A stretch of 64,000 bases of DNA. Origin: Candidatus Aldehydirespiratoraceae bacterium (lineage in GTDB: Bacteria; Actinomycetota; Acidimicrobiia; Acidimicrobiales; Aldehydirespiratoraceae). Location: positions 391,096-455,095 of the forward strand of contig OZ240616.1 in NCBI GenBank assembly GCA_965198315.1. The letters are read 5' to 3'. Of the stretch, positions 39,403-64,000 are shown piece after piece (positions within the stretch are counted from its first letter, which is position 1; each line of letters starts with the position of its first letter). The notes under the pieces are model-generated. The model had not been told where the DNA came from. It saw only the letters and a list, made by a program, of their open reading frames with translations, and did not search any database. The position numbers and the translations under genes were made by a program.

Positions 39403-39418
39403 ATCGTCACGCTCCGCA

Positions 39419-40615: not shown

Positions 40616-40626
40616 GCGTCACCAGT

Positions 40627-41541: not shown

Positions 41542-41573
41542 ACTCACAGGAGGCGCAAACCAAGCCGCGCCGC

Positions 41574-44449: not shown

Positions 44450-44459
44450 GCGATGGCCC

Positions 44460-46471: not shown

Positions 46472-46611
46472 GCGGAACGTCGTTTCTCCCAGGGGAACAT
46501 CGGCCCTAGTGTTCCGCACAATCGAGTCTGTTGGCAACCGTTCCCAGCGAAGATAGGCCTTACCAGCGAACATCCGCTAGCCTCATTCCCCTGAGCGGAA
46601 CAGCAGAACCA

Positions 46612-47394
46612 ATGGACTCAGTCACTGGCACAAGTCGCAGCGTGGCCGCTATTGAGCGGGCTGCTGATGTGCTGTTCCTGTTCGCCAGAGCACAGAGCAC
46701 TCTGGGCGTCACCGAGATTTCCAAGGAACTCGGCGTGTCCAAGGCGGTCGTGCATCGAATACTCACCTCGTTGCGTGAACGGAACCTGTTGACCATCGAC
46801 CCGGAGACCCGGCGCTACGCGCTTGGGCCGGCTGTGTTGGAACTGGCCACTGCTTACCGCGATCAGCTCGATATTCGGACCCTGGCCCTCGACGAGATGC
46901 GCAGACTCAGCGCCGCGACCGACGAAACCGCGACTCTGTCGGTACGCCACGGCAACAAACGTGTTTACGTCGCCCAGATAACGCCTCCCCGAGAGGTGAA
47001 GATGACCGTGCCCATCGGTGGGTCGTTTCCGCTGCACGCCGGCGCTTCGTCCAAAGCGTTCCTGGCTTGGCTCAGCGAAGGCGAGATTGACCTCTATCTG
47101 GCCGAGAATCCACTCGACGCCATAACTGGGGCCACCATCATCACTGTCGACGAACTTCGTGCCGAACTGGGCCGCATTCGTCAGCAGGGTTTCGCCGTCT
47201 CTCTCGGTGAACGTCAACACGACGCCGGTTCGGTCGCGGCTCCGATCCTCGACGACAACCAAGCGCCAGTCGCGGTGATCAGCGTCAGTGGACCGATTGA
47301 ACGCTTCCGCGACAAAATCGCCAGTTCGGCGGCTGCGGTGGTGGAGGTCACCCGAGCGCTGTCCACAAAGCTCGGAGCCCGCCCTGGTGGCTGA
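46612..47394 (+). CDS. IclR-family transcriptional regulator
   Basis: SVAAIERAADVLFLFA...LGVTEISKELGVSKAVVHRILTSL HTH followed by an IclR effector domain. Confidence 0.9.
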   Translation: MDSVTGTSRSVAAIERAADVLFLFARAQSTLGVTEISKELGVSKAVVHRILTSLRERNLLTIDPETRRYALGPAVLELATAYRDQLDIRTLALDEMRRLSAATDETATLSVRHGNKRVYVAQITPPREVKMTVPIGGSFPLHAGASSKAFLAWLSEGEIDLYLAENPLDAITGATIITVDELRAELGRIRQQGFAVSLGERQHDAGSVAAPILDDNQAPVAVISVSGPIERFRDKIASSAAAVVEVTRALSTKLGARPGG

Positions 47395-49171
47395 ACTGCC
47401 TCAGGTGACAGACCACTTGACGGTGGCGGCGGTGCAGTTCGCCACGGGCAGCGATCTCGAGGAGAACCTCGACACCTGCCTACGAATGCTCGATGCGACC
47501 GCCGCGCAGGGGGCTGATCTGGTGGTGTTTCCGGAGTTCTGCAACCACATCTCGGTCTACGACGATGCCGCGCACTGCCGGGCTGTTGCCGTAGCACTGG
47601 ATGGTCCCTGGATGCGGGCTTTTGCTCGGCGGGTTGCTGAGCACGGGATTTATGCCGCAATGGCTGTGACGATCCCCCGAGCTGACGGGCGGGTGACCGT
47701 GACCGGCCTGCTGTTCGACCCCGACGGGGAACTGCTGGCCACCGCGGACAAACAGATGCTCATGGGGAATGAAAGGTCCTTCCTTAGTACCGGTTCCGGG
47801 GCGAACCCGGTGGCCGATACTCGCTTCGGCCCCGTCGGCCTGTATTCCTGCATGGACGGCGTGACCTTCGAGATACCCCGCACGTTGGCGGTGCGCGGTG
47901 CTCGGTTGTTGCTCAACAACCTCAACTCGTTCGCCCGTGACGAGGCGGCGCTGCATATTCCGGTGCGAGCCGCCGAGAACGGCGTGTTCGTGGTGGCTGC
48001 CAACAAGGTCGGTCCTTTGTTGCCCCCTGACCGCGTGGACGCTTTCAGCGAGGCGCTGGGCGTGGGTGCCGAGACCTTGAACGGCGCCGGTGAAAGCCAG
48101 ATCGTGGGTCCCGACGGCACCGTGTTGGCTATCGGCCCCCTAACCGGCGAGGCGGTGGTCATCGCCGAGGTTGACCTGTCCGAGGCCGACCCGACCCGGC
48201 TGGTGGGCCGACGGCCCGGTGTGTACGCCCCGCTGGCGCAAGCCCCTACGGCACGACCGGCAACCGGTTTGGCCGCTGAGGTGGTCGTTGCCTGCGTGCC
48301 TGGAAGCCAAGCGAAACCAGAACTACTCGACGAGACCTTCGCTTCTTCGGCGGCGCTGGTGATCTTGCCGGAGCTGACACCGGTGCCCGCCACCATTCCC
48401 GAGGGCGTCTTGGTGGTGACCACAGCCCTGCGAGAAGACCGAGACGGGCACGGTCAACACGAACACGGTCAACACGGCGACGGTCAACACAGGGACCAGA
48501 TTTGGTCGTCGCAAGCCCTACAAACAAATCGAGACAGCGACCGTCAACCCGGCGACAGTGAACACAGTCACGGTCAACACGGTGACACTCAACACGGCGA
48601 CACTCAACACAGCCACATTCAACACAGGGGCCAGGTTTGGTCGGCGCAAGGCTTGGTCCACGAACAACCGCAGATCCACCGCAGTGATCGCTACCCGCAA
48701 GTCACCGACTTGGGCAGTGGCGTGGACTTGTATCGAACGCCGTTCGGTGATCTGGCCGTCTTGGTAGCCGACGACCACCGCTACCCCGAAGCCGTGCGAC
48801 TAGCAGCAGTGGCCGGCGCCCACATCGTTGTGGTGTGTTGGCAGCCTGAACACCCCTGGGAGTGGGATCTGGCTCTGGTGGAGCGTGCAGCCGAGAACCG
48901 AGTCAGCCTCGCTGCGTGCGCGCCGATGGGTTCAGCCGGCGCTGCGATAATGCTCGACCCACCGGCCGATTCGCTCTGGAATCCTCAGCGGTCAAGCGCC
49001 TATGACGGCACCATCAACACTCCAACAACCATTCGGGCCAAGCCGGATCAAGGGCTGCTTATTGCGACCTTGCACCCAGGCCGAGCCCTCCACCGGGAGG
49101 TCTCAAAAGACACCGATCTCGTGGGTGGCCGACCGTGGCAGGCCTCGCAGATACTCAACGCGGTGCCCTAG
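47387..49171 (+). CDS. tandem carbon-nitrogen hydrolase (nitrilase-superfamily) protein with His/Gln/Gly-rich insertion
   Basis: First domain has VAAVQF...VVFPEF (catalytic Glu) and GLYSCMD (Cys). The second domain looks degenerate (LPEL; LVADDHRYPE lacks the Cys). Start is GTG 47387, or GTG 47405 / TTG 47417. Confidence 0.8.
   Translation: MAELPQVTDHLTVAAVQFATGSDLEENLDTCLRMLDATAAQGADLVVFPEFCNHISVYDDAAHCRAVAVALDGPWMRAFARRVAEHGIYAAMAVTIPRADGRVTVTGLLFDPDGELLATADKQMLMGNERSFLSTGSGANPVADTRFGPVGLYSCMDGVTFEIPRTLAVRGARLLLNNLNSFARDEAALHIPVRAAENGVFVVAANKVGPLLPPDRVDAFSEALGVGAETLNGAGESQIVGPDGTVLAIGPLTGEAVVIAEVDLSEADPTRLVGRRPGVYAPLAQAPTARPATGLAAEVVVACVPGSQAKPELLDETFASSAALVILPELTPVPATIPEGVLVVTTALREDRDGHGQHEHGQHGDGQHRDQIWSSQALQTNRDSDRQPGDSEHSHGQHGDTQHGDTQHSHIQHRGQVWSAQGLVHEQPQIHRSDRYPQVTDLGSGVDLYRTPFGDLAVLVADDHRYPEAVRLAAVAGAHIVVVCWQPEHPWEWDLALVERAAENRVSLAACAPMGSAGAAIMLDPPADSLWNPQRSSAYDGTINTPTTIRAKPDQGLLIATLHPGRALHREVSKDTDLVGGRPWQASQILNAVP
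48441..48655. repeat. in-frame tandem repeats encoding (H-G-Q-H / G-D-x-Q-H)n inside the CN-hydrolase gene
   Basis: cacggtcaacac units recur. Two larger modules each end in cagggRccagRtttggtcgKcgcaagSc (RDQIWSSQAL / RGQVWSAQGL). Confidence 0.9.
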
Positions 49172-49970: not shown

Positions 49971-50104
49971 TGTCGTGGCAGTTCCCTGATGTTGTTGGCA
50001 GTGTGGTTTGTTGACACTCGTCGCTGCTCAGCCCTACTGTCAGGCCGAATGAAACGTTGTTCCGCTTAACGGAACAACTTTCCTCTGACGATACCGGAGT
50101 ACCT

Positions 50105-50917
50105 ATGCGCGAGACGTTGAAGGGCGTCCAAGACATCTTCGACGAGCGAGGTCCGACAGATGCTACGGCAACGTTCAACCGCCTGTGGTCCATCACCGGT
50201 GAACTCATGGCCAAGATCGAAGCCCGGTTCGAGTTGACCCGAGACCCGAGCACCGACGATTTGGAGTCCTACCGAGGCGAAACTGAGCACCCCTCAGGAC
50301 GGCTTGCCGCCTATGCCGGACCCGAAATCGACTGGCTGGTCCACTCCTGGATCGGCAACCCGCCGCTGGGCTTCACCAACATGCACGTAACCGCCTGGCT
50401 CGGCCCGCAAATAAACGTTCCCCATCTCGGTATCGCCTGGGGAACCCTGCCCGACCTGTGGTTCTACATCGACTTCAATGCCCGTTCCGATCTCATGCTC
50501 GACACCGAAGCGCTGGACAAATACTTCGAACCGCTCAACGAAGAGTTCTTGGAGTTGCGCGCCGATGAGGGGCTGGCACCGTTCACCTCCAGGGCTTTGT
50601 ATATCCGCCAAGCGCTGAGCGACGTGGCCATCTGTTTCACCACCCCCAACCGCACCCACGACAAAGCACGGCTTGACCAGGTGAGCGAACTGGCCCATCG
50701 GCGGGTCGACCAATGGCTGCGCTGGGTTGATGAAGCCGAACCGGTGCCGCAAGCACGTCGCGAAAAACTTACCGCAGACGATCTGGCCCGGCGACGCAAC
50801 ATCGCCGAACGAGACCCCGCGAACGTGATGGCGGAACGGTTCTTCGGTCAGGAGATGACCGATCGCCTGGTTCGAGCTCTCTGGGGTGGCGACCGGCTAC
50901 TGCTGAGACCCAGTTAG
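50105..50917 (+). CDS. red-chlorophyll-catabolite-reductase-like (FDBR/RCCR family) protein 1
   Basis: ggag RBS before ATG 50105. Segments IDWLVHSWIG, VPHLGIAWG...YIDFNARSDLMLDTEALDKYFE, APFTSRALYIRQALS and ERFFGQEMTDRLVRAL line up with the Arabidopsis RCCR (ACD2) segments IDFVIGSWI, APNFVVEL...LDLPHRKDLVLNPDYLKEYYQ, NPYVSPSLFVRSAFS and PRMFGEEVSSRVVHAI as I remember them. Confidence 0.65.
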   Translation: MRETLKGVQDIFDERGPTDATATFNRLWSITGELMAKIEARFELTRDPSTDDLESYRGETEHPSGRLAAYAGPEIDWLVHSWIGNPPLGFTNMHVTAWLGPQINVPHLGIAWGTLPDLWFYIDFNARSDLMLDTEALDKYFEPLNEEFLELRADEGLAPFTSRALYIRQALSDVAICFTTPNRTHDKARLDQVSELAHRRVDQWLRWVDEAEPVPQARREKLTADDLARRRNIAERDPANVMAERFFGQEMTDRLVRALWGGDRLLLRPS

Positions 50918-50927
50918 GACGTATCGA

Positions 50928-52118
50928 ATGTTCATCAAGAACCACTGGTATGCAGTCGAGTTCGGTGCCGATGTCGTCGGCGAGCCTGTACTGGCCCGGG
51001 TACATGGCCACGACCTGGTGCTGTGGCGCAGTCCCGACGGCACCGTCAACGCCCAATCCGACCTGTGCGTCCACCGTGGCGGTTCACTTGCCGGAGGCAA
51101 GGTGGTGGGCAACTGCGTGCGGTGCCCTTACCACGGGTGGCGCTACGACACCGGCGGTGCGTGTGTGGAGATCCCCGCAAATCGGCAAGGTCTGCCCATC
51201 CCCAAAAAGGCCCGGATCGACACCTATCCCTGTATCGAGCGCTACGGGTTCGTATGGGTGTTCCTGGGCGACCTGCCTACAGAGCAGCGACCTCCGGTGC
51301 CTGTACTCGACGGCCTCGAAGAACACACCGAAGCCAAAGCCGAGGGTTACCGCGCCATATTCGGCGAGTTCACCTGGAACGCCAACTACGACCGGGTGTT
51401 GGAGAACGCAGTCGACATCGCCCACACCCCGTTCGTGCACTCCGGATCGTTCGGCAACGCTGAGCAACCTGAAATCGGTGACTTTGAACTCGAAGAGGAC
51501 CACCACGACGGCTATTTGACTTCGGTGACGGCCACGGTCGACCTTGAGCCACCACGCCCATCAGGGCTGTGGAAGTTCATCTCCAAGAAAGACCGCCCCC
51601 CGGTCAGCACAACTACCGGGTTCTATCCCCCCAATGTGTCGCTCTTGATCGTGCGCCTGCCAATGGGCGAGATTCGCATCTTCACCGCGGCGGTCCCCCG
51701 AGATGAGCACCTCACCGTCTCGAAGTTCGCCATGTTGCGCACGTTCTTCACAGGCGGTTGGGCCGACAAGAACTCCATGCAACGCACAATCAAGATTTTT
51801 CTGGAGGACCAGCCCACCGTGGAGGGGCAGCGGCCCGAGTTGTTGCCGTTCGATTTGTCGGCCGAACTGCATGTCAAGTCCGATTCGATCCAGTTGGCCT
51901 ACCGTCGCTGGCGCCAAGAGCAGCTCGACAAAGGCTGGGGACTTGAAGTGCTCTCGGACGAATCGGCCATGCGGGCCGCTGCGGTGATTCCCTCACCGGC
52001 ACGATCGGGCGATCCAGAACTGGCTAACGCCTGGGTGTTCCCCACCGTCACTGAGGCTGTAGCGCAACGGCCTGTCGGCGAGACCGCGCAACGGTCCGTC
52101 GGCGAGGCCGAGCGATGA
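50928..52118 (+). CDS. Rieske [2Fe-2S] non-heme-iron oxygenase, PaO/VanA-type single-component alpha subunit
   Basis: CVHRGGSL...CPYHGW Rieske ligands and ENAVDIAHTPFVH mononuclear-iron motif. The C-terminal FLEDQPTVEGQ and SDSIQLAYRRW resemble the PaO/Tic55/VanA lineage. Confidence 0.85.
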   Translation: MFIKNHWYAVEFGADVVGEPVLARVHGHDLVLWRSPDGTVNAQSDLCVHRGGSLAGGKVVGNCVRCPYHGWRYDTGGACVEIPANRQGLPIPKKARIDTYPCIERYGFVWVFLGDLPTEQRPPVPVLDGLEEHTEAKAEGYRAIFGEFTWNANYDRVLENAVDIAHTPFVHSGSFGNAEQPEIGDFELEEDHHDGYLTSVTATVDLEPPRPSGLWKFISKKDRPPVSTTTGFYPPNVSLLIVRLPMGEIRIFTAAVPRDEHLTVSKFAMLRTFFTGGWADKNSMQRTIKIFLEDQPTVEGQRPELLPFDLSAELHVKSDSIQLAYRRWRQEQLDKGWGLEVLSDESAMRAAAVIPSPARSGDPELANAWVFPTVTEAVAQRPVGETAQRSVGEAER

Positions 52119-52834
52119 GCCTGTCGGCTGATCTGTGCCTTGGGGCTGTCGAGGCGATTGAGGCTCGCTTGGGGTTGGCGGAGACCGTGAACACACCGCT
52201 GGTTTCGGCGCTGGACGGTTCGCCGGTTGGTGCCCACCGGGTGTTGGCGCGTGACGGGCTGGCCGCGTTGGTGTACGTGGGTATGACTGTGGAGGCATTC
52301 GGACTCGACAGCCACATGTGTTTCGCGTTCACGGATGCTCACAGTCCGGTCCCTCATTTCACAGTGGATTCGGTGTTGGCCGGTCCCCACTATGCGTTCC
52401 ACCTTGATCTGATCCCCCGCCTGGACCCGGGTGCGAACCTGGCCTACATCGACCATTGCTACGGCCCGCTCACCGAAACCCATGACACGGTCGTGGAGAT
52501 GGAGGGGCTGACACCCGCACATTTGTCACCGCGGCAATGGCAGTTGATGTCGGCCTGGATGCTGGCCCATCGCGCCGACGAAGACGGATTTCGGGGGGTG
52601 TTCGATGCGGTGTCCGCATATCGCGACCACTGGCTCAAGTTGGTGGTCGAGGGTGTGCCTGACGATGCCCTCGGTGGCGCGACCCCAGACGATCTGGATC
52701 GGCGTGACTTCCGCAACCGCGAGGCAATCTTCAGCCCCGAGGTGGACCCCGTCTGGGCTCGGGTCGACCAACTGCTCGGCCCAGAAACCAGCGCCAATAT
52801 CCAAACCAGTCTCAAAACCGCAGCACGCAGCTAG
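52115..52834 (+). CDS. red-chlorophyll-catabolite-reductase-like (FDBR/RCCR family) protein 2
   Basis: The ATGA overlaps the oxygenase gene. SPVPHFTVDSVL....FHLDLIPRLDPGANLAYIDHCY parallels RCCR APNFVVELI....LILDLPHRKDLVLNPDYLKEYY. The C-terminal DLDRRDFRNREAIF...VWARVDQLLG parallels ELERRDKSFRRKSI...FPRMFGEE. Confidence 0.6.
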   Translation: MSLSADLCLGAVEAIEARLGLAETVNTPLVSALDGSPVGAHRVLARDGLAALVYVGMTVEAFGLDSHMCFAFTDAHSPVPHFTVDSVLAGPHYAFHLDLIPRLDPGANLAYIDHCYGPLTETHDTVVEMEGLTPAHLSPRQWQLMSAWMLAHRADEDGFRGVFDAVSAYRDHWLKLVVEGVPDDALGGATPDDLDRRDFRNREAIFSPEVDPVWARVDQLLGPETSANIQTSLKTAARS

Positions 52835-52861: not shown

Positions 52862-53800
52862 ATGAGCGAAACCGAAGCCTCCGAGTGGCAGCAGCGCATC
52901 ACCGGTGAATGGTACGGCCTGCCGTCGGTTTTCGATGCCGACGGAAGCCACACAGGGTTCAACAAGGTCAGTCGGGCCAGCGTGTTCGCCGACGGCAAGG
53001 TCACCTATTGGATGCAGTGCAACTTCATGAACACCGGACCGTTGCGCAACCGCTTCGAGATCCGCGATTTCGAGTTCGGCGTGGACGATCAGGGCAACGA
53101 CCGCATCTATCATGGCCCCGACTTCTACGGGGCAGGCCACCCCTACGGTTCGCTGGTGGATTCGCACTATTACGCACCGGGTTGGCGGGCCGATCTCAAC
53201 ACCATGAACCAGATCCTCCCCGACGGAGTGACTCAGGTGTACTCGTCTCTGCTGTATGAAGGACCGACCATCTTTGCGGTGTTCAACGGGGTGTATCTCA
53301 ACGCCCACGACTACGACACCAATGCCGACACCAAAGAATGGATCGACACCCACATCGAGGCCGAACGCGAGCTGGCCTCATGGCCCCACACCGTGCCCGA
53401 CCGGATCGGCGGTGAATGGACCGGGCAATGCGAGGTGTTCGGGGCCGATCAACAACGTCGGGGCACAGTGGATGTGCGCTTGCGCAACGACCCCATCGAC
53501 TTGGTGTGCGCCAACTGCACTCTGGACATGTCCGGGACCATCGACCGGTCTCTGAGCTACATCCGCACCCGCTCTGGTGGCAACCGTTACACCTACGACG
53601 GCCCCGATTTCTGGGGCAACGCCATCGCTTACGGTCGGGCGCTGTACACGACCCAGCATCATGCGAGCGAGGCGTTCAAGATCAAAGGGCGGGAGTTCAT
53701 CCTTGACCGCAACTACACGCTGGCTGTGGCCTGGAAGCTCTACTCCGGCGACCGCATGACCGACATCGTGTTCGGCCCCCTCAACTGGTCATCCGACTAA
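52862..53800 (+). CDS. two-module GxWxG beta-barrel-like protein (DUF3598/nitrobindin/lipocalin-like, tentative)
   Basis: Two internal modules each open with the signature ITGEWYGLPSVFDADG / IGGEWTGQCEVFGADQ. 27 nt after RCCR-like 2. Confidence 0.55.
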   Translation: MSETEASEWQQRITGEWYGLPSVFDADGSHTGFNKVSRASVFADGKVTYWMQCNFMNTGPLRNRFEIRDFEFGVDDQGNDRIYHGPDFYGAGHPYGSLVDSHYYAPGWRADLNTMNQILPDGVTQVYSSLLYEGPTIFAVFNGVYLNAHDYDTNADTKEWIDTHIEAERELASWPHTVPDRIGGEWTGQCEVFGADQQRRGTVDVRLRNDPIDLVCANCTLDMSGTIDRSLSYIRTRSGGNRYTYDGPDFWGNAIAYGRALYTTQHHASEAFKIKGREFILDRNYTLAVAWKLYSGDRMTDIVFGPLNWSSD

Positions 53801-55503: not shown

Positions 55504-55800
55504 AACCTAGCCAAAGGGTGTGACACTACATGAAAATAGAGATCCACGATGGCTACGGTTGTGGCTACGGATCACCAATGGGTGACCGCGCACTTACACC
55601 GTCAGGGCCCGTTGGGAATCACAGAAATCTCGAGTGGTTGATGTGGATCTGGGCTCGTGGAATCCGCGTATCCGAGAACGCCGCCAAGCTGGAAGCGCTC
55701 GGCTCAGGATCCCCACGTCCCAAACAACCACACGACAGAACCTCGGCATGAATCACACAAAAAACAGTCTCTGATTCACCCTGGGACGTTCCTATAGATG

Positions 55801-56883
55801 TCAAGTGCGGGTTTTGAGGGTGGCGAGGTCGGCTCGCAGTGTGCGGTAGATCTCTCGTGCGAGGTAGCGCTTGAGGCAGCGGATGGCTTCTTTCTTGGTT
55901 TTGCCTTCGGCGACGCGGCGGTCGAGGTAGCTGCGGGTTCGGTCGCAGTAGCGGAGCCGGACGATGACGATCATGTGCAGTGCCCGGTTGGCGGCGCGGT
56001 TGCCGGCGAAGTTGAGCCGGTGGCGGCTGGTGCGCCCGCTGGATGCGGGCACCGGAGCGGTTGCGCACAGGTGGGCGAAGGACGCTTCGGAGCCGAGCCG
56101 GTCGATGTTCTCGCCGGCTGCGACGAGCAGCGCCGCGGTGTGGTGGGTGCCGCATCCCAGACGCGACACTGTCGTGGGCGCTGCGGCGGCGACGAGCCGG
56201 TCGAGTTCGCGTTCGAGTTCGTCGGCTTCGGCGCCGAGCCGGGCGATGCGGCGCCCCAGGCTGCGCAGTGCTGCTTTGGCGGCCTGGGCGGGATCGGCGA
56301 GCCGGGCGGGGTCGGGCCGCAGCCGGGCGCACACCGCGGCTTTGCCCTCGAGGGTGCGGCGGGTGTCGAGCTGTTCGCGCAGCGCGGCGGGGGCGGTGAC
56401 GAGCAGGTCGCCGAGCTGGCACAGCGCAGCGGAGCGGGCTTTGACAGCGCTGCTGCGGACGACGCTGAGCTGGCGGATCGACTCGACCACGCCGGTCGTG
56501 TCCTTGGCGGCTGCGGTCGCTTCGCCCGAGAGCACCTTGCGGGCGGCGGCCTCGGCGTCGATGGCGTCGTTCTTGCCGCGGCGCGAACGCAGATGCGCGT
56601 GCGGCTGGTTGACCTCGATCACCCGGCAGCCCTGCTCGGTCAGCGACCGGGCCAGGGCAGCTCCGTAGGACCCGGTCGATTCCACGCCGACCGCGGCGAT
56701 CGGGCCGAACGACAAGAGCCATTCATGAGTCGAGCGGTAGCCAGCGCCGGTCGCGGGGAACGACTCAGTGCCCAGCACCCGACCCAAGGGGTCGAGCGCG
56801 GCGGCTACGTGGAAGTCGGTGTGGCAGTCAATCCCGCCGATCACCGCCTGTGGTGGTGGTTCTGGCATCATGTTGTCCTTCAT
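55801..56883 (-). CDS. IS110-family transposase
   Basis: IGGIDCHTDFHVAA (DEDD N-terminal domain), VGVESTGSYG, NDAIDAEAAA and C-terminal LKRYLAREIY. ATG 56883 chosen. Confidence 0.9.
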   Translation of the reverse strand: MKDNMMPEPPPQAVIGGIDCHTDFHVAAALDPLGRVLGTESFPATGAGYRSTHEWLLSFGPIAAVGVESTGSYGAALARSLTEQGCRVIEVNQPHAHLRSRRGKNDAIDAEAAARKVLSGEATAAAKDTTGVVESIRQLSVVRSSAVKARSAALCQLGDLLVTAPAALREQLDTRRTLEGKAAVCARLRPDPARLADPAQAAKAALRSLGRRIARLGAEADELERELDRLVAAAAPTTVSRLGCGTHHTAALLVAAGENIDRLGSEASFAHLCATAPVPASSGRTSRHRLNFAGNRAANRALHMIVIVRLRYCDRTRSYLDRRVAEGKTKKEAIRCLKRYLAREIYRTLRADLATLKTRT

Positions 56884-57199
56884 CTCGGAGCGGCTCGCGT
56901 GCCGGGACGGGACGGACATAACAGTGATGAGGCATCTGTCAGCGCAGGTTCCTATGAGGTCACGTCGCTCGTTCCGGACCGGCCGCAGCTGGCAAGTCCA
57001 AGGAGCAGACCGCCGACATCGACGAGTCCCAGGCAAGGCACCCACAACACGCAGGGCCAGTTTTGCGGCAAGTCAGACGCCGACGGCCCGCTCCCCGCAC
57101 ACATCTTCACTGTTTTGCGCAGGCTCCAAGGATTGGAGCAAGCATGGGAGCTATGGACACACAAGCGAACACGGCGGGGACGTCTCGTCGGTATTCGGC

Positions 57200-57492
57200 T
57201 GAGCAGAAAAAGCACGCGGGTACGTGCCGACAACACAATCACCTGCTGGGGCAACAACACCTTGGGGCAGACTGGTGCGCCTGAGGGGAAGTTCCAAACT
57301 GTTTCCGCCGGCTCGGGGCATTCGTGCGGGTTGCGTGCCGACAACACACTCACCTGCTGGGGCAACTACTTCGATGGGCGGACTGATGTGCCTGAGGGTG
57401 CGTTCAAGACTGTATCCAACAGCGAGGAGTACTCGTGTGGGGTACGTGCCGACAACACAATCACCTGCTGGGGCTACATACGGATAGGTTGA
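57200..57492 (+). pseudogene. RCC1_2-like repeat gene fragment (about 2.5 blades)
   Basis: RADNTITCWGNNTLGQTGAPEGKFQTVSAGSGHSCGLRADNTLTCWGNYFDGRTDVPEGAFKTVSNSEEYSCGVRADNTITCWGY, with 111-nt periodicity and near-identical 33-nt segments at 57220 and 57442. No credible start. Abuts the IS110. Confidence 0.5.
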
Positions 57493-57620
57493 TGCGCCTG
57501 CGATGACGTGCTCGGCTCGCTGGGCACGTGTTGCATCTAGCAAGGGGCCGAGCAGACAGGCGGTGGTCCAAGTCTGTTCCGGCCCGGGTCCGTTCTGCTC
57601 GAACCGCCGGGAACCACCGG

Positions 57621-57682
57621 GTTTGAACTAGGACTTGACAAACCTTTGTTGTTATTGCAAACTAGTTTGTGTTACAAACTAG
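57621..57682. promoter_or_regulatory. candidate promoter/operator upstream of the membrane-protein/wHTH operon
   Basis: ttgaca at 57635-57640. Perfect 12-bp palindrome caaactagtttg at 57658-57669, with related half-sites gtttgaactag (57621-57631) and acaaactag (57674-57682). Confidence 0.4.
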
Positions 57683-57696
57683 ATGGAGGCGAGCAA

Positions 57697-58323
57697 ATGC
57701 AGACATTCGATGACAGCTCAGATCCCCTGACCGCCGAGGAGAGTTGGCAGGCCATCCACACCACCATGGACGATGCCCGGAGCTCGATGTACCTGGCCGG
57801 AAGCACGAAGATCATGCTGTTGTGGGGCGTGATCGTCTCAGTGGGATGGCTCTCCCAGTACGCCATCGAGACGCTCGCCACCGAGTTCGTCGAGGACAGG
57901 CCAGAGGTCTCAGGCTTGTTGTGGGCTGTCCTCGGCCCGGTGGGTGGGGTGAGTAGCGGCTTCATCGGTCACCGAGCGAGCCAGAACATTGCGGCAAGCG
58001 AAACGGCCCGCCGGGCAGGGATCCGGGTCTGCCTTTTCTGGGTCACCCTCGTGGTGGCCTCGTTCCTCCTCATTGGCGCGGCAGGGTTGTGGAACGATGC
58101 CGAGCACCTCCCGCGATTCTGGGTGGGCATGGCGGCACTCGGATACGTCCTGTTCGGCATCATGCACCGTCCCATGATCGCGGTGTTGGGTCTGGGCTTC
58201 GCAGCCGCGTTCTACATCCCGGAATACCTCCTCGGCGACGTGGCACTGGCGGTGTCCGGATCGGCGACGCTGGCCATGACGGTTGCCGGCTTCGTGTGGG
58301 TCCACAAGACCGGCGAATGGTGA
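57697..58323 (+). CDS. integral membrane protein (about 5 TM), unknown function
   Basis: ggagg RBS before ATG 57697. Hydrophobic helices throughout. Stop overlaps the regulator start. Confidence 0.65.
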   Translation: MQTFDDSSDPLTAEESWQAIHTTMDDARSSMYLAGSTKIMLLWGVIVSVGWLSQYAIETLATEFVEDRPEVSGLLWAVLGPVGGVSSGFIGHRASQNIAASETARRAGIRVCLFWVTLVVASFLLIGAAGLWNDAEHLPRFWVGMAALGYVLFGIMHRPMIAVLGLGFAAAFYIPEYLLGDVALAVSGSATLAMTVAGFVWVHKTGEW

Positions 58324-58727
58324 ACGACGAAGCCTCCATGACCAGTCAGCCGTCCCCGTCCACGGACGCAACTCCCGTGTCGACCGGCGAGGAGATCATC
58401 CTCGATGAGACCATCCATCAGCCGACCCGGCTGCGCATCATGACGCTGCTGGTCTCGGTTCTCGAGGCGGACCGCCTGGCCTACGGATTCATCCAGCAGA
58501 CCCTGCGGCTGACCGGCGGCAACCTGACGGTCCATCTGCGCAAGCTCGAGGCCGCGGGGCTGGTGACCATCACCAAGGAGTTCCAAGGCGCCAAACCGCG
58601 CACCTGGGTGCAGGCGACCACACAGGGACGACGGGCCTTCGCCGAGTACCTGTCGAACCTGGAGAGGGCGCTCGGGGTCAGTGTCCGCGGGGTGCCTGCC
58701 GACGATGGACAAGCAGGCAGCCAGTGA
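58317..58727 (+). CDS. winged-helix transcriptional regulator (ArsR/MarR-like HTH)
   Basis: HQPTRLRIMTLL........GFIQQTLRLTGGNLTVHLRKLEAAGLVTI...F.G.KPRTWV..T..GR.AF. Confidence 0.75.
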   Translation: MVNDEASMTSQPSPSTDATPVSTGEEIILDETIHQPTRLRIMTLLVSVLEADRLAYGFIQQTLRLTGGNLTVHLRKLEAAGLVTITKEFQGAKPRTWVQATTQGRRAFAEYLSNLERALGVSVRGVPADDGQAGSQ

Positions 58728-58808: not shown

Positions 58809-59498
58809 TCAACCGATGGTCACTGTTACTGAACGGGTGTCGTCGTCGATGGTCTCAGCAAGGGCGATAGCGGTTGCTCCGATCGGGTCGTTCATGGTCC
58901 ATAGGCGGCGGTGTTGTGACGGCGCTGGCCAACAGGCCGCAACCAGCAGCGGGCCGACTGCACGGCGCAGTGGCCATTCATCGCCGTCTTCGGGCAGCGG
59001 GGCCGACAGGTCCAAGCGAGGCTCGATCCCGGACGCTTCCGGGACGGCTACTCCCACGATGTCGGCCACTGACCGTCCGGCTAGTGAGAAGAACCCGCCG
59101 GTGAGTTGGCGGTCGGGGGTGACAAGCACGCTGTAGGACTCGAACTCGTATCCGAATCGGGGCCACAGGCCCTGTCCGGTCATTGCCCCGGGCTGCCATT
59201 GTGTCGCGGTGCCCACCACATCGGGGCCCAGGTAGCGGCGCTGGTCACCGACCACTTCGAGATCGAATACCCATTCGCCTGCGAACGCGGCCATGGCGTG
59301 GCCGTCGAGTGCGAGCGACGGTTCGCATTGTTGGGTCACCCGCAGCCGCGCTTCGTCGATCTGTTCGACGCAACGGCGCTGGGCGACGGTTCCTCGGTAA
59401 GTACCGTCGGGGTCGTACACGTATTCGGTTACCCGCCAGGCGCCGCCGAAGCTGTCATCGCTGTTCACACTGTCGTTGCTCATGTCATCGCTGCTCAT
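58809..59498 (-). CDS. GxWxG-type barrel-like protein (paralogue family)
   Basis: FGGAWRVTEYVYDPDGTYRG opening signature. 4-nt overlap with the upstream gene. Family tentative. Confidence 0.5.
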   Translation of the reverse strand: MSSDDMSNDSVNSDDSFGGAWRVTEYVYDPDGTYRGTVAQRRCVEQIDEARLRVTQQCEPSLALDGHAMAAFAGEWVFDLEVVGDQRRYLGPDVVGTATQWQPGAMTGQGLWPRFGYEFESYSVLVTPDRQLTGGFFSLAGRSVADIVGVAVPEASGIEPRLDLSAPLPEDGDEWPLRRAVGPLLVAACWPAPSQHRRLWTMNDPIGATAIALAETIDDDTRSVTVTIG

Positions 59499-60397
59499 GC
59501 CGGATCGAAGGCCAGGGTGCCGTAGCTAGCCCCAACCCGCTCGGAGCCCCGATACCAGATGCAAAGCACCGCCTTCATGGTGCCGTCGAGTGCTGCTACT
59601 TCGCGGCGCCACACCCGCAGTCCGTCGGTCTGGTGATGGAACTGTCCGCTGAGACCCCTGCCGCCGCTGAGGGTTGCGCTACCTGTCACCTCGCCGTTCG
59701 GGGTCCAGGCAGACCAGCCGTCAGAGGTCAGCGGGAACGAGACATCGCCTGCGAACCCAAGCCCTGACAACTCCACTTGGAATTGACTGCTCCCTTTGGT
59801 GACCGTCTCGGCATATGCAGCCACCTCGGTAGGTTCAAGATCAGCATCGAGATGGTGCAACTGGCCCGACCAGCACCCCGAGCGCAGCAACAAAAGCTCG
59901 TCTCGGCCCGCCGCTGGGTCGTCTCCCAACTCCGCGGGGTCCATCGCTTGAACAGGCGGCGGTGTCGGCGCCTCAGCGTCAACTTGACGCTGATACTCGC
60001 CGACCACCGTCCAAACAAGCCTCACCCCCCGGCTCAGCAAAGCCAGAGACAACTGACGTGATCCGTCGGGCAGCACCATCAAGAAGAAGCGCTGTGACAG
60101 ACCAAGGTCCGGCCAGTAGTTGTGAGCCGCCACCAGGCCGTCGCCCAATGCCTCCGCGTAGCCCACGTTGAGCGGGCCCTCATAGGTCCGATACGAACCG
60201 TGATCGACGATGGTGTACTCCCCCGACAGCGAGAACGGCCCGTCGAAGGTGACTTCTACGGTTACTGTCCCGGCCTGGTCATCGGCCTGCACTGACCGGG
60301 TGTCGCGCCCCAACCCAGCGAAGCGACCTTGAGAGTCGTATACCTCAGCCGCGCCGATCCATTGACCGACACCCTGAGAGAACGACCCACTGCTCAC
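59495..60397 (-). CDS. two-module GxWxG barrel-like protein (paralogue family)
   Basis: Modules open with GVGQWIGAAEVYDSQGRFAG and RSGCWSGQLHHLDADL. 4-nt overlaps on both sides. Confidence 0.5.
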   Translation of the reverse strand: MSSGSFSQGVGQWIGAAEVYDSQGRFAGLGRDTRSVQADDQAGTVTVEVTFDGPFSLSGEYTIVDHGSYRTYEGPLNVGYAEALGDGLVAAHNYWPDLGLSQRFFLMVLPDGSRQLSLALLSRGVRLVWTVVGEYQRQVDAEAPTPPPVQAMDPAELGDDPAAGRDELLLLRSGCWSGQLHHLDADLEPTEVAAYAETVTKGSSQFQVELSGLGFAGDVSFPLTSDGWSAWTPNGEVTGSATLSGGRGLSGQFHHQTDGLRVWRREVAALDGTMKAVLCIWYRGSERVGASYGTLAFDPA

Positions 60398-61212
60398 GCT
60401 CGGACCAAGTGCACCGTCTGCGCCTCGATCGACGTCGCTGCCAGCTTCGCGGCGAGGTCGGTGCCCGCCGGTTGCGGAGAGAGGTAACGGCCCTCTGTAG
60501 CCAATTCGAGTTCACCGGCAGCAAATGGATACGGGTCCAGTTCGTAGACCGCACCGGGCAGTTCCACGACCGAGACGGTCACGTCGTCGCCGACCGCTCG
60601 GGGCACGTTGTGGAACTCTGATTCGCCGCGTTCGCCTTCGGGGGCCAGGTGCATGTAGAGGGAGAGCGTGTCGAAGAACTGGAGCTGTTTGTAGGCGTGG
60701 AACAGGTACTCGTTGCTTGCATGCTCAGGGTCGCTCACCGCTAGCTGCTCTCGGAGGCGGCTCTGACGGTCCTCTTCTGCTGCCAGCATGGCGTCAACTT
60801 CGGGACGCAGGTCCTCTCCGATGCTGTCGAGGAAGATCTTGTCGCTCAGCCCGTACCGTCCCCGATACAGGCCGTAGGTGTGCATCGACGAGATGATGCC
60901 GCTGAACGGGTGATGGCTCTCGTTGAACGCCGGCGACCCCGCCGAGGTGGCAACGATTTGCGGCAACGGCGTAGCTGTGAGGTTGTACGGCAGTCCGGTC
61001 GCCGGGTCTTGAGGGGCGGTGGCATCCAGGTCGGCCCATCCTTGGTCGTGGTGGTCGACGATGAACTGCATCGGTTCGGTGGGTTCGAGCCCGGCGAAGT
61101 CTTCGTTGCCGAAGTTCACGGCCAGCGACCCTGCGAAGGCGGTGTGCTGGTGCATTGCGATCACGAAGTGCGGGGCGTCAGCAACACCGCCGGGGGCGCG
61201 CTGGACGATCAT
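60394..61212 (-). CDS. DUF3891-like protein
   Basis: IAMHQHTAFAGSLA and VDHHDQGWADLD His-rich motifs resemble DUF3891 as I recall it. ATG 61212 preferred, since the upstream track ORF is Arg/His/Gln junk. Confidence 0.5.
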   Translation of the reverse strand: MIVQRAPGGVADAPHFVIAMHQHTAFAGSLAVNFGNEDFAGLEPTEPMQFIVDHHDQGWADLDATAPQDPATGLPYNLTATPLPQIVATSAGSPAFNESHHPFSGIISSMHTYGLYRGRYGLSDKIFLDSIGEDLRPEVDAMLAAEEDRQSRLREQLAVSDPEHASNEYLFHAYKQLQFFDTLSLYMHLAPEGERGESEFHNVPRAVGDDVTVSVVELPGAVYELDPYPFAAGELELATEGRYLSPQPAGTDLAAKLAATSIEAQTVHLVRA

Positions 61213-61664
61213 GGCCGTTGGATCCGGGCGAAGTCTTGAATCTGGAACAGGTTGGTTTCCCCGTCCCGCACTTTGTGGGTGATGATGCGCCGGGTGTCGG
61301 GGTTCAAGAAGTAGTGGTTGTTGTAGACGATGGTGTTGCTGACTCTGCTGTCGATGGTGAACACGTAGTTGTATGGCGTGAGTTCGGCGCCTTCGAGGCT
61401 GATCTGTTCGCTGTCGGCGAAGCACCGTTTGCCTTCAACTCCGATCGGCGTGTTGAAGATGGTTTCACCCACGCCGTAGAGGTTTTCGAAGTGTTCGTGG
61501 AGGTGCCAGGTCTGGTCGTCGAGCCAGTAGACATCCATGTGCACCGCGCTGGATTCAAGGAACTCCCCTTCGGGGCTGAAGCTCTTGCACAGCCCTTCCC
61601 AGCGGCCCATGAAACACTGATAGGGCCTATCCGAAGTGGGGCCGTAGCTTTTTTGTTCGCTCAT
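61209..61664 (-). CDS. single-module GxWxG barrel-like protein
   Basis: ATG 61664. FMGRWEGLCKSFSPEGEFLE signature. 151 aa. Confidence 0.5.
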   Translation of the reverse strand: MSEQKSYGPTSDRPYQCFMGRWEGLCKSFSPEGEFLESSAVHMDVYWLDDQTWHLHEHFENLYGVGETIFNTPIGVEGKRCFADSEQISLEGAELTPYNYVFTIDSRVSNTIVYNNHYFLNPDTRRIITHKVRDGETNLFQIQDFARIQRP

Positions 61665-61733
61665 GGCGCAATCGTAGAGTGCCCGGCCCGACAATGAAAC
61701 CGCGTTCCACTGAGCGGAACCATAAGCTGAAAT

Positions 61734-62696
61734 ATGATCGTTCGGGGATGGTACTTTGCGTTTGAGGCCGACGAAGACGCAGCTGTAGCCACGCTGTACT
61801 ACCCCGGTGACGACCAACGGTTGGCAGAAGCTCGGTTGACCGGGCGCGTCCCCCCGATCGAATCGCCCGATCCCTGGCCGGTGATCGTGATGATGCCGGG
61901 GATCAACATCGCTCCCGACGGCTACCGCTGGCTGGCTCACCGACTCGTGGCCGACGGATTCTGCGTTGTGACCTGTGCGGCTATCGGTTCACTCGGGCCT
62001 GCGGGGCGGGGCATCACTCCCGGTATCGATATGGGTGCGCTGTTGCCTGACACGATCGGTACCCGACCGTCGTCCACCGTGCTCGAACCGCTGCTGGCTC
62101 GTCTCGACGGCGCCACCGAAGACGACAGCCCCGTGGCTGGACTTCTGGATCTGACCCGGGTGGTGATCGGTGGTCATTCCGCCGGTGGCACGGTGGCGTT
62201 GCACAACAGCGACCCTGCCTGGGTCCCGGGCCTGCAAGCGGTGTTCACTTACGGCGCTCACACCATGACCGCCACTGCGTTGGGGCACGGCGAGAGCACC
62301 GTTGTGACCGTGCCGGCCAAGGTGCCACAGATGTTGCTGGGCGGGACTGACGACGGGGTTATCTCAGCGAGCCGTGACCGCTACCTCACAAAGCAAGACG
62401 ACACGGCCCACGACCCCATCCGCCGAACCTTCGACGAGGCCATCGGCCGTGACACCGGCGATTCCTGGCTGGTTGAGTTGGCCGGAGTGGGCCATTTCGC
62501 TATCTGCTGGCCGCTCGACACCACAAGCGGTCGCACTTTCCTGGAGTCCGACCCTGTCTCAGCAGACCCCGAGATCCGAGAACTGCTGGCCGACCTCATC
62601 GCCGCATTCATCGCCACGAGTCTCGACCGCCCCGTCCCCAAAAGCCTGGAGAGCCTTGTCGAGCATCGCCTGGTGACCCACTGGAGACGGCGCTGA
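61734..62696 (+). CDS. alpha/beta hydrolase, chlorophyllase/dienelactone-hydrolase-like
   Basis: YYPG....PWPVIVMMPGINIAPDGYRWLAHRLVADGFCVV parallels the chlorophyllase N-terminal pattern. GGHSAGG nucleophile elbow. Late GTDDG and GVGHF (Asp/His candidates). Confidence 0.7.
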   Translation: MIVRGWYFAFEADEDAAVATLYYPGDDQRLAEARLTGRVPPIESPDPWPVIVMMPGINIAPDGYRWLAHRLVADGFCVVTCAAIGSLGPAGRGITPGIDMGALLPDTIGTRPSSTVLEPLLARLDGATEDDSPVAGLLDLTRVVIGGHSAGGTVALHNSDPAWVPGLQAVFTYGAHTMTATALGHGESTVVTVPAKVPQMLLGGTDDGVISASRDRYLTKQDDTAHDPIRRTFDEAIGRDTGDSWLVELAGVGHFAICWPLDTTSGRTFLESDPVSADPEIRELLADLIAAFIATSLDRPVPKSLESLVEHRLVTHWRRR

Positions 62697-62733
62697 ACCC
62701 GGCGTTCTCGTACAATCTGCAGGAGAGGGCTAA

Positions 62734-63540
62734 ATGGGCAAGCGCATTGTTATCACGGGGAGCACGAGGGGGATCGGCAACGGGTTGGCCCGTGAGTTCC
62801 TGAAGCGCCAATGCCAGGTCGCCATCAGTGGACGCTCAGCCGACAGCGTGGCGACGGTGGTGGCCGAACTCGGTGAGTATTACGGGGCGTCCAAGGTCTG
62901 CGGCAAAGCCTGCGACATCACCAACCCCACCCAACTCCAGGAGCTATGGGACCACGCCGCACAAGCATTCGGCGGGGTCGACATATGGATCAACAACGCG
63001 GGAGTCAGCATTGAGCGCCGACCTCTGTGGGAACAATGCGACGACGACCTGGCTGGATTGGTCAACACCAACCTCACCGGAGCGCTGCTAGCCAGCAAGA
63101 CAGCTGTGTCCAACATGGTGCGCCAAGGCCACGGACAGGTTTGGAACACCGAAGGGTTCGGTTCTGATGGCGCCACTCAACCCGGTATGGCCGCCTACGG
63201 CGCCACCAAGCGCGCCGTCCGTTACCTGCAGAAAGCCCTACGCAAAGACACCGCCGACACCGATGTGCAGATCTGCACTGTCTCGCCGGGCATCGTCGTG
63301 ACCGACCTGCTCACCGGCGACTACGACCTCACCTCCGAACAGTGGGAGAAGTCGAAGAAGATCTTGAACATTCTGGGCGACGAGGTCCACACCGTCACTC
63401 CCTGGCTGGCCGACCACATTCTCGCGACCGACAAGTCCGGCGCCCGCGTGGTGTGGCTGACCCGCCGCAAAGCCTTCGCCCGTTTCATGACTGCGGCGTT
63501 CCGCAAACGCGACCTGTTCGTCGACATCAAGGGCGCCTGA
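62734..63540 (+). CDS. short-chain dehydrogenase resembling chlorophyll(ide) b reductase NOL/NYC1
   Basis: VITGSTRGIGNGLAREFLKRQCQVAISGRSADSV..VV.EL, VDIWINNAG, N.EG.GSDG.TQPGMAAYGATK, SPGIVVTDLL and ILNILGDEVHTVTPWL follow the NOL pattern ITGSTRGLGKALAREFL..GD.V.I.SRS..SV, INIWINNAG, N.DGAGSGG.STP..AVYGSTK, SPGMVLTELL and FNIICELPETVARTL (from memory). Confidence 0.8.
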   Translation: MGKRIVITGSTRGIGNGLAREFLKRQCQVAISGRSADSVATVVAELGEYYGASKVCGKACDITNPTQLQELWDHAAQAFGGVDIWINNAGVSIERRPLWEQCDDDLAGLVNTNLTGALLASKTAVSNMVRQGHGQVWNTEGFGSDGATQPGMAAYGATKRAVRYLQKALRKDTADTDVQICTVSPGIVVTDLLTGDYDLTSEQWEKSKKILNILGDEVHTVTPWLADHILATDKSGARVVWLTRRKAFARFMTAAFRKRDLFVDIKGA

Positions 63541-63546
63541 CGACCC

Positions 63547-64000
63547 TTAGGACTCGCTTACACCGGTGACCGCGGAGCCGCTGCGGGCTATGGCCGTCAG
63601 GTCGCCTCCGAGGTAGCTGCGCACCACGGCGGCGTCGGCTTGGACCTCGCTCGGGGTGCCCTCGGCGATGACGGAGCCCGTCTCCATGGCGATCAGCCGG
63701 TCGCAGACCGAACTCAGCAGCGGCATGTCGTGCTCGATCACTATCAGCGTCATCTGGTAGGCGTCGCGGATCTGGGTGATCAGTGTGCCCAGTGCCTCCG
63801 TTTCGGCTTGGGCGATACCGGCCGAAGGTTCGTCCATGAGCAGCAACCTTGGGCGCAGAGCAACGTTGGCCGCCAGCTCGACGAGGCGGCGGGTGCCGGT
63901 GGACAACAGGCTCACCGGCTGGTCAGCCAAGCCGCCGAGACCGAACACGGCGAGCGTCTCGGAAGTTTCGTCCTCGATTCGGCGTTCGGCTGACGATCCA
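63547..64000 (-). CDS. ABC transporter ATP-binding protein (LivG/LivF-like), C-terminal part; continues beyond the window
   Basis: LSTGTRRLVELA (signature-like), LLLMDEPSAGI (Walker B) and IEHDM (H-loop). The frame stays open to the window edge. Confidence 0.8.
   Translation of the reverse strand, partial: GSSAERRIEDETSETLAVFGLGGLADQPVSLLSTGTRRLVELAANVALRPRLLLMDEPSAGIAQAETEALGTLITQIRDAYQMTLIVIEHDMPLLSSVCDRLIAMETGSVIAEGTPSEVQADAAVVRSYLGGDLTAIARSGSAVTGVSES

Follow-up and report, generated by a model that had tools for sequence, protein, structure and literature searches.

A relative of the plant chlorophyll b reductase NOL and an uncharacterised alpha/beta-hydrolase are linked to an RCCR-like/Rieske operon in Acidimicrobiales and other bacteria

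We analysed a 64,000-nucleotide stretch of contig OZ240616.1 from a Candidatus Aldehydirespiratoraceae bacterium (assembly GCA_965198315.1; the whole stretch is referred to as the window, and positions are counted from its first nucleotide). Near its end lie two adjacent genes, one for an alpha/beta-hydrolase and one for a short-chain dehydrogenase/reductase (SDR), downstream of an operon with an RCCR-like protein and a Rieske oxygenase. The original prediction had called the hydrolase chlorophyllase-like and the SDR a reductase of the NOL/NYC1 type, and had proposed that the two supply early steps of chlorophyll breakdown to an oxygenase operon about 9 kb away. Both open reading frames (ORFs) were found in the window where they had been placed, and the operon was located 8-10 kb upstream of them. 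The features are:

61734..62696, plus strand: ORF of an alpha/beta-hydrolase, 320 aa (ORF list), with TGA at 62694-62696 as stop codon
62734..63540, plus strand: ORF of a classical SDR of the NOL/NYC1 subfamily, 268 aa (ORF list and sequence comparison)
62722..62728, plus strand: Shine-Dalgarno-like GGAGAGG, 5 nt before the SDR ATG (read from the sequence)
61665..61733, no strand: divergent intergenic region of 69 nt between the hydrolase gene and a minus-strand four-gene block (sequence)
50057..50917, plus strand: RCCR-like protein, 286 aa (PF06405 at 53.8 bits against a 24.9-bit cut-off)
50928..52118, plus strand: Rieske non-haem iron mono-oxygenase, 396 aa, with Rieske and VanA_C domains (Pfam)
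52115..52834, plus strand: second, divergent protein of the RCCR/bilin-reductase fold, 239 aa (hhalign against the RCCR-like family 98.5%, E 1.5e-15)
52862..53800, plus strand: conserved orphan protein, 312 aa, accompanying the RCCR-fold pair (family alignment)

The hydrolase and SDR ORFs lie on the same strand and are separated by 37 nt; this short gap is consistent with co-transcription of the two genes. No terminator-like site was found in the scanned interval 61400-63800, and a promoter scan of the hydrolase-SDR region did not find a sigma-70 consensus. Promoters and an operator are presumably held in the divergent intergenic region (61665..61733). Past the SDR, a convergent ABC-transporter ATPase gene ends at a distance of 7 nt. 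The closest genome match was an Acidimicrobiales metagenome-assembled genome (MAG) labelled Candidatus Aldehydirespiratoraceae, whose SDR is 98% identical, and further close homologues came from Candidatus Poriferisocius and Poriferisodalis.

Judged by its sequence, the SDR is specifically related to plant NOL and belongs to the NOL/NYC1 subfamily. It aligned with Arabidopsis NOL (At5g04900) at 39% identity over 254 aa (160 bits), the C-terminal substrate region included, through the blocks ITGST(R/K)GIG..LAREFLK, DIWINNAG, N-x-(E/D)-G-x-GSDG, AAYGATKR and a C-terminal (I/F)xN(I/V)L, and every motif that the original prediction had quoted as NOL-like found its counterpart in the plant protein. 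The likeness to the subfamily was measured against NOL rather than NYC1. As a check on the Arabidopsis NOL query, P0244 (labelled 'chlorophyll(ide) b reductase' at the Joint Genome Institute, JGI) agreed with it at 100% identity across the mature part, and the protein database search also recovered over 100 named plant NOLs. In phmmer searches at equal database size, plant NOLs matched the window SDR at 154 bits (E 4e-44), compared with 87.7 bits for the best of 177,635 PDB sequences. A profile of the bacterial family gave plant NOLs about 200 bits; the other SDRs encoded in the 82 loci described below mostly scored 101 bits or less, apart from one intermediate at 168 bits and two paralogue groups at 220-266. 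Plasmid sequences (72,556 records) served as a further background: there, the best match of NOL reached 106 bits, against 160 bits for the window SDR, and the window SDR itself retrieved one true family member (Nonomuraea, 192 bits), followed by matches of 97 bits or less. Every plasmid SDR except the Nonomuraea family member ranked below NOL as a match to the window SDR. The Nonomuraea record (PLSDB NZ_LT559118.1; locus L163 in our collection, in which loci carry L numbers), filed as a plasmid, is 11.85 Mb long with 10 annotated features and is evidently a chromosome.

Seventeen positions are kept in 84 family members and eight NOLs and are rare in 13 generic SDRs, and an unusual 11-residue Ser-Tyr spacing is common to the bacterial family and the NOLs. 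A neighbour-joining (NJ) tree, the only type of tree built, with capped distances, 11-12 outgroups and neither NYC1 nor algal or cyanobacterial homologues among its taxa, grouped the bacterial family with plant NOL to the exclusion of 11 generic SDRs in 99/100 bootstraps; a paralogue group was excluded as well in 33/100, and the bacterial family was monophyletic without NOL in 20/100. Plant NOL was placed among the bacterial sequences, not outside them, at an attachment point without firm support. A larger NJ taxon set gave 17/100, with saturated distances (NaN) and with the 168-bit intermediate SDR counted as an outgroup. The score difference, the 99/100 bootstraps and the plasmid background bear out the earlier statement that the SDR is not a generic FabG-type protein.

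The SDR matched PF00106 (1.6e-40), and its segments T8-G15 and N87-G90 and the tetrad N113/S144/Y155/K159 are invariant in 21 family members. In SDRs, a basic residue in the Gly motif and one after strand 2 indicate a preference for NADP(H). R12 in the Gly motif (Lys in NOL) and R34 after strand 2, which is invariant in the family, thus predict use of NADP(H). An identity of the FabG or glucose-dehydrogenase type was considered and rejected, all NCBIfam matches lying far below their cut-offs, and no NCBIfam model reached its cut-off for the SDR; the public names of its homologues say only 'SDR family oxidoreductase'. Altogether, the window protein resembles plant NOL and NYC1 in being a classical SDR with shared blocks, short Ser-Tyr spacing, a related C-terminal segment and NADPH-type basic residues. 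Unlike plant NOL, it has neither a transit peptide nor an N-terminal extension, comes from a non-photosynthetic heterotroph, and is encoded together with RCCR-like and Rieske genes in a catabolic cluster, with no HCAR partner among the cluster genes examined. In some Gammaproteobacteria, the main copy is accompanied by a further SDR paralogue of the NOL family (220-266 bits), which lies next to it on the minus strand in L036, L042, L044, L045, L048 and L068 and upstream of it in L006, L011 and L016.

For the hydrolase, the label 'chlorophyllase-like' survived in part. What stands is the GHSAGG elbow (residues 147-152) and a likeness at the level of the superfamily: S149, D207 and H254, the putative catalytic triad, are invariant in 43 homologues. 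A GHSxG elbow and a Ser-Asp-His triad occur superfamily-wide and do not discriminate chlorophyllase. What fell is membership of the Chlorophyllase family PF07224, to which neither the hydrolase nor any of the 43 homologues gave a match at E ≤ 0.01. The sole Pfam match of the hydrolase, to PF12740 (polyethylene terephthalate, PET, hydrolase-like), scored 26.8 bits and fell short of the 28-bit cut-off; at E ≤ 0.01, PF12740 was matched by 31/43 homologues, Abhydrolase_2 by 12/43 and DLH by 1/43. We take PF12740 to be the family formerly named 'Chlorophyllase2'. PDB searches with the single sequence and with the 43-homologue profile yielded weak cutinase/PETase matches (profile 8e-5), and chlorophyllase was not among the 60 matches listed for the profile. 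When an AF2 model of the hydrolase (predicted local distance difference test score, pLDDT, 83.7) was compared with the PDB by Foldseek, the best matches were PETase and LCC (probability 1.0, template modelling (TM) score 0.51-0.59, 15-19% identity), and the 50 matches listed were all PETase/cutinase variants. The original prediction had stated that kinship with dienelactone hydrolases or cutinases, together with inactivity on phytylated pigments, would speak against it; on the side of homology this is what we found, the closest relatives being of PETase/cutinase type and several homologues bearing the JGI label 'dienelactone hydrolase'.

With the PET hydrolase/cutinase/chlorophyllase group (PF12740; LCC, PHL7, IsPETase; wheat chlorophyllase 8FJD) the hydrolase shares the alpha/beta core, the G-H-S-x-G-G elbow and the Ser-Asp-His order. 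It differs from PET hydrolases and cutinases in its low identity to them, its sub-threshold PF12740 score, its N-terminus MIVRGWYFAFEADEDAAVATLYYPGDD, in which no hydrophobic signal-like segment was seen (by sequence reading, no predictor), and additional elements of the AF2 model, namely a beta-hairpin at the N-terminus, an insertion of low confidence (residues 87-120) and a helix/strand extension at the C-terminus. The hydrolase is accordingly predicted to be cytoplasmic. To the PF07224-type protein of Halioglobus, which is itself about equally distant from PETases and from 8FJD, it is 27% identical over 157 aa (pairwise E 1e-4). A pheophytinase-like or Abhydrolase_1-type identity was also rejected: no Abhydrolase_1/6 match passes, and similarity to the Halioglobus Abhydrolase_1 gene is nil. 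As far as sequence and predicted structure go, the protein belongs to a small uncharacterised alpha/beta-hydrolase family and is chlorophyllase-like only at superfamily level; this family returned 342 matches in 90% clusters, nearly all from Acidimicrobiia, and 379 representatives at E ≤ 1e-3 among 1.84 billion.

We scanned other genomes with an SDR alignment, taking one genome per species; this gave at least 593 loci, and 82 SDR-centred loci were used for synteny. A reverse scan of metagenomes with an RCCR-like alignment, pooled with the SDR scan, gave 45 cluster loci of at least 12 kb. In soil Actinomycetota, the same six gene families form one operon with the colinear order RCCR-like, window-type hydrolase, Rieske, second RCCR-fold protein, orphan protein, SDR. 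This operon was present in Nocardioides, Mumia, Streptosporangium, Nocardia and related MAGs (L018, L021, L025, L028, L031, L043, L053, L076, L077) and in the soil metagenome contigs L118, L122, L124, L126 and L127. In L005, another genome of the Acidimicrobiales, nothing but the minus-strand block parts the two cluster halves. Halioglobus maricola has an SDR 64% identical to that of the window, and the neighbours of its gene are an RCCR-like gene, a Rieske oxygenase, a PF07224 chlorophyllase-type gene, another alpha/beta-hydrolase, a major facilitator superfamily (MFS) transporter, a carbon-nitrogen (CN) hydrolase, an acyl-CoA dehydrogenase and an aldehyde dehydrogenase; the Thalassotalea cluster has a similar gene set. 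Gene order differs among Actinomycetota, Acidimicrobiales and Gammaproteobacteria, and direct adjacency of hydrolase and SDR is confined to Acidimicrobiales. As had been proposed, the hydrolase-SDR pair is functionally tied to the RCCR-like/Rieske operon: the six families are colinear in soil Actinomycetota and are found together again in Acidimicrobiales and in marine Gammaproteobacteria.

Among the 45 pooled cluster loci, the SDR was present in 30 and the hydrolase in 28; where at least 8 kb were available on both sides of RCCR, the numbers were 14/20 and 13/20 respectively. Window-type hydrolases and those of the PF07224/Abhydrolase_1 type hardly ever shared a cluster (the former alone in 27 loci, the latter alone in one, both in one), which suggests that the same job is done by different esterases. 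Two further observations concern the neighbourhood of these genes. In the Actinomycetota operons of L018, L021, L028, L031 and L043, an aldehyde dehydrogenase gene at about 3.4-3.9 kb of the locus immediately precedes the RCCR-like gene in the same orientation; its product is 31-34% identical to that of Halioglobus. A 335-aa protein is encoded between the Rieske and chlorophyllase-type genes of Halioglobus (L001:1055-2062, minus strand), and a 51% identical homologue (L163:7534-8460) stands beside the stand-alone SDR of Nonomuraea gerenzanensis; this protein may be another recurrent partner.

Within the operon, the RCCR-like protein found its best PDB match in Arabidopsis RCCR (7.8e-9), other bilin reductases reaching only 0.027. 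The Rieske protein is a candidate for the ring-opening oxygenase. The second RCCR-fold gene nearly always comes after the Rieske gene; its product has no Pfam match alone, 6/12 members of its family weakly match PF06405, and a profile of the family retrieved nothing from the PDB. The orphan protein belongs to a family of about 300 aa with many invariant Gly, Pro, Trp and Tyr residues, for which profile searches gave no Pfam or PDB match; its single-sequence AF2 model was unusable (pLDDT 33.7). It was present in 21/82 SDR-centred and in 26/32 large RCCR-centred loci.

Collectively, these results point, on balance and by a modest degree, to the hydrolase-SDR pair as the distal, co-transcribed part of a conserved bacterial cluster for the breakdown of chlorophyll-derived tetrapyrroles, with a de-esterifying hydrolase and a C7-formyl-reducing SDR. 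From the observed homologies, catalytic motifs and gene linkage we infer which substrates are used, in what order the steps run and in which direction the SDR works. In the plant pathway, phytol is removed by the serine esterase pheophytinase (PPH) and the C13(2) methyl group by another, MES16. The window hydrolase, which has no detectable sequence relationship to either enzyme, is a candidate for one or the other reaction; as a cytoplasmic serine esterase it would most likely remove phytol from chlorophyll or pheophytin, and less likely the C13(2) methyl ester. The SDR would be an NADPH-dependent carbonyl reductase, and by analogy with NOL its target is most likely the formyl group at C7 in pigments of the b type (chlorophyll b, pheophytin b or pheophorbide b), reduction of which would let these pigments enter ring opening. 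The Rieske enzyme would then open the macrocycle, and the RCCR-fold proteins would reduce the product. It is reasonable to infer that the pair supplies early steps feeding the oxygenase. In this Acidimicrobiales genome, inserted genes would have divided the cluster. RCCR (PF06405) and NOL, two independent families of chlorophyll catabolism, co-occur in the clusters.

Several results weigh against this chlorophyll b scheme. On the side of the hydrolase, these are the absence of PF07224 matches and the cutinases and PETases as closest known relatives. For the Rieske protein, no PaO domain (PF08417) was found even at E ≤ 1 in 16 orthologues, and the nearest solved relatives are SxtDIOX/SxtT, NdmA/B and DdmC, that is, toxin hydroxylases and N/O-demethylases. 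No HCAR (FrhB-type) or SGR-like gene was seen among the Pfam-annotated genes of the window, Halioglobus and Thalassotalea clusters, so that the step after the 7-hydroxymethyl product and the removal of Mg are unaccounted for; this count covers cluster genes, and copies elsewhere in the genomes are possible. That most clusters contain the SDR suits a core step no less well than an accessory one confined to chlorophyll b. Finally, about half of the sampled SDR family loci, mostly from Chloroflexota and with 40-50% identity, had no cluster genes within 10 kb, and the 48 SDR loci of this kind showed no recurrent neighbour.

Some of these points feed the strongest competing explanation, which keeps the chlorophyll-catabolic cluster and lets the SDR act on a carbonyl or alcohol other than the C7 formyl of b-type pigments. 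Candidate targets are the formyl group of the red or fluorescent chlorophyll catabolite (RCC/FCC) arising from ring opening, the C13(1) keto group, and the phytol or phytenal freed by the esterase. The near-constant SDR (the 14/20 loci mentioned above) would suit a core step for chlorophyll a too; no HCAR partner was found among the annotated cluster genes examined; aldehyde dehydrogenase and acyl-CoA dehydrogenase genes go with the SDR in many clusters; and, on chemical reasoning, the RCC formyl sits on a pyrrole, as does the C7 formyl of chlorophyll b. Against this, the only characterised relatives, NOL and NYC1, reduce the C7 formyl of b-type chlorins (PMC9306834, PMC7762049), the window has no aldehyde dehydrogenase similar to the Halioglobus one, and the alternative substrates are without direct evidence. 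We consider this explanation unlikely, though a serious competitor to C7-formyl reduction.

A cluster for an altogether different substrate, such as haem-derived bilins, bacteriochlorophyll or an N-heterocyclic or aromatic ester, appears improbable to us. The hydrolase and SDR would then be generic tailoring enzymes whose likeness to chlorophyll enzymes reflects ancestry, a notion that draws on the VanA/NdmA/SxtT-like Rieske protein without PaO domain, the place of RCCR within the bilin reductase fold family (PMC10151467), the PETase/cutinase-like hydrolase, and flanking CN-hydrolase, amidohydrolase, CoA-transferase and HpcH lyase genes typical of small-acid and N-heterocycle catabolism. It has to contend with the linkage, across at least three phyla, of RCCR and NOL, two families without relation to each other whose characterised members all act on chlorophyll catabolites, and with an RCCR-like protein far nearer to Arabidopsis RCCR (8e-9) than to other bilin reductases. 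Moreover, the Halioglobus cluster also has a PF07224 chlorophyllase-type gene, and a carrier of the RCCR-type gene set degrades chlorophyll a according to the preprint discussed below. That the pair is an unrelated housekeeping esterase and reductase, by chance 8 kb from the oxygenase operon, is very improbable: the distance of about 8 kb between the halves, with an HNH endonuclease and repeat proteins in between, and the many stand-alone SDR homologues would allow it, yet synteny already contradicts it, since both genes lie inside the RCCR/Rieske operon in Actinomycetota and co-occur with RCCR/Rieske in other orders in Gammaproteobacteria and Acidimicrobiales, and the block between the halves holds a paralogue of the cluster's orphan protein.

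Clusters of this kind have been predicted before for chlorophyll a. A preprint (Aliyu et al., bioRxiv 10.64898/2026.03.19.712979, March 2026) describes structure-predicted prokaryotic homologues of CLH, PPH, PAO, RCCR and SGR, with 'RCCR-type' sets mainly in Actinomycetota, Pseudomonadota and Cyanobacteriota; Shewanella acanthi, with an RCCR-type set within about 11 kb, was reported there to degrade chlorophyll a, and a PPH/CLH double mutant to be impaired. As in the window cluster, an RCCR homologue, a Rieske oxygenase and alpha/beta-hydrolases stand together in the sets it outlines, and the enrichment it reports (Nocardioidaceae, Streptosporangiaceae and Mycobacteriaceae; marine Pseudomonadota) falls on the families that hold the six-gene operon here. 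The preprint defines PAO by a structural criterion; here, a Rieske + VanA_C oxygenase adjoins RCCR, and PF08417 is unmatched. Unlike the cluster described here, the main text of the preprint features no NOL, NYC1, chlorophyll b or SDR, and the sections considered here do not name the second RCCR-fold protein, the orphan protein or the CN-hydrolase; the supplement gives no gene-level description of the Shewanella cluster. In the plant literature, NYC1/NOL figures as a family of the Viridiplantae (PMC3541173, PMC9306834), and no report of a bacterial NOL-type gene in clusters of this type came up in a literature search whose coverage mostly left out subscription journals. Prokaryotic chlorophyll a clusters were already predicted; the NOL-type reductase would be a new member of them, and the distinct esterase family a possibly new one.

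Chlorophyll turns over in very large amounts each year, and little is known of its consumption by microbes without photosynthesis; the sole report located was the 2026 preprint, whose prokaryotic gene sets are defined by the plant enzymes for chlorophyll a. The NOL-type reductase and the esterase family add two assayable enzymes to the pathway, and the synteny indicates culturable hosts: Halioglobus maricola, Nocardioides gilvus, Streptosporangium amethystogenes, Nocardia alni and Mumia sp. It also turns the origin of the plant chlorophyll b reductases into a testable question. As a tentative and somewhat doubtful extension, heterotrophs of several phyla might carry a complete, modular machinery for chlorophyll mineralisation, b-type pigments included, and their NOL-type family might be the stock from which plant NOL/NYC1 arose. 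The carriers would then be sponge-associated Acidimicrobiales, soil Actinomycetota and marine Gammaproteobacteria; an origin of this sort has been proposed for the Mg-dechelatase SGR as well, and, if true, the two RCCR-fold proteins, the 312-aa orphan family and the CN-hydrolase would represent steps without a plant counterpart. For the sponge symbionts, it suggests that the pathway may remove phototoxic pigment from ingested phytoplankton.

The remaining features of the window lie upstream of the operon and between the two halves of the cluster:

30587-31747, minus strand: IS481-type transposase (rve, HTH_32, LZ_Tnp_IS481), upstream of the island
38755-49970: catabolic island upstream of the RCCR-like gene (Pfam annotation)
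47288..49171, plus strand: carbon-nitrogen hydrolase, 627 aa (PF00795), a conserved cluster member
54340-58727: spacer between the cluster halves, with a DUF222/HNH endonuclease, an RCC1-repeat protein, a membrane protein and an HTH_34 regulator
58809..61664, minus strand: four-gene block encoding a 229-aa protein, a 300-aa orphan paralogue, a DUF3891 protein and a 151-aa protein (Pfam and hhalign)

The island encodes an isochorismatase-like hydrolase, two family-III CoA-transferases, an amidohydrolase, an MmgE/PrpD protein, a PF04199 cyclase/formamidase-type protein, an IclR regulator, the CN-hydrolase and an HpcH/citrate-lyase-type lyase. The CN-hydrolase has 37-48% identical orthologues in gammaproteobacterial clusters and is present in 28/32 large RCCR-centred loci; orthologues of the isochorismatase likewise occur in gammaproteobacterial clusters. 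One may speculate that these two enzymes process pyrrole- or imide-derived fragments to small acids. The genes of the spacer are absent at the equivalent position in L005, and the spacer may therefore be an insertion; a second RCC1-repeat protein is encoded at 32561-34606.

In Acidimicrobiales, the four-gene minus-strand block always lies between the cluster halves (L003-L005, L085-L087, L103, L105), and it adjoins RCCR in L121, L133 and L141. Its 300-aa protein (59495-60397, minus strand) is a distant paralogue of the orphan family (hhalign 96.5%, E 9e-10), and its 151-aa protein matched DUF3598_N only at E 0.034. By eye, a start of the form W..G...(F/Y)D.(D/Q)G..G is common to the proteins encoded at 61209-61664 and 58809-59498 (both minus strand) and to the orphan family, and this common start may indicate a ligand-binding barrel.

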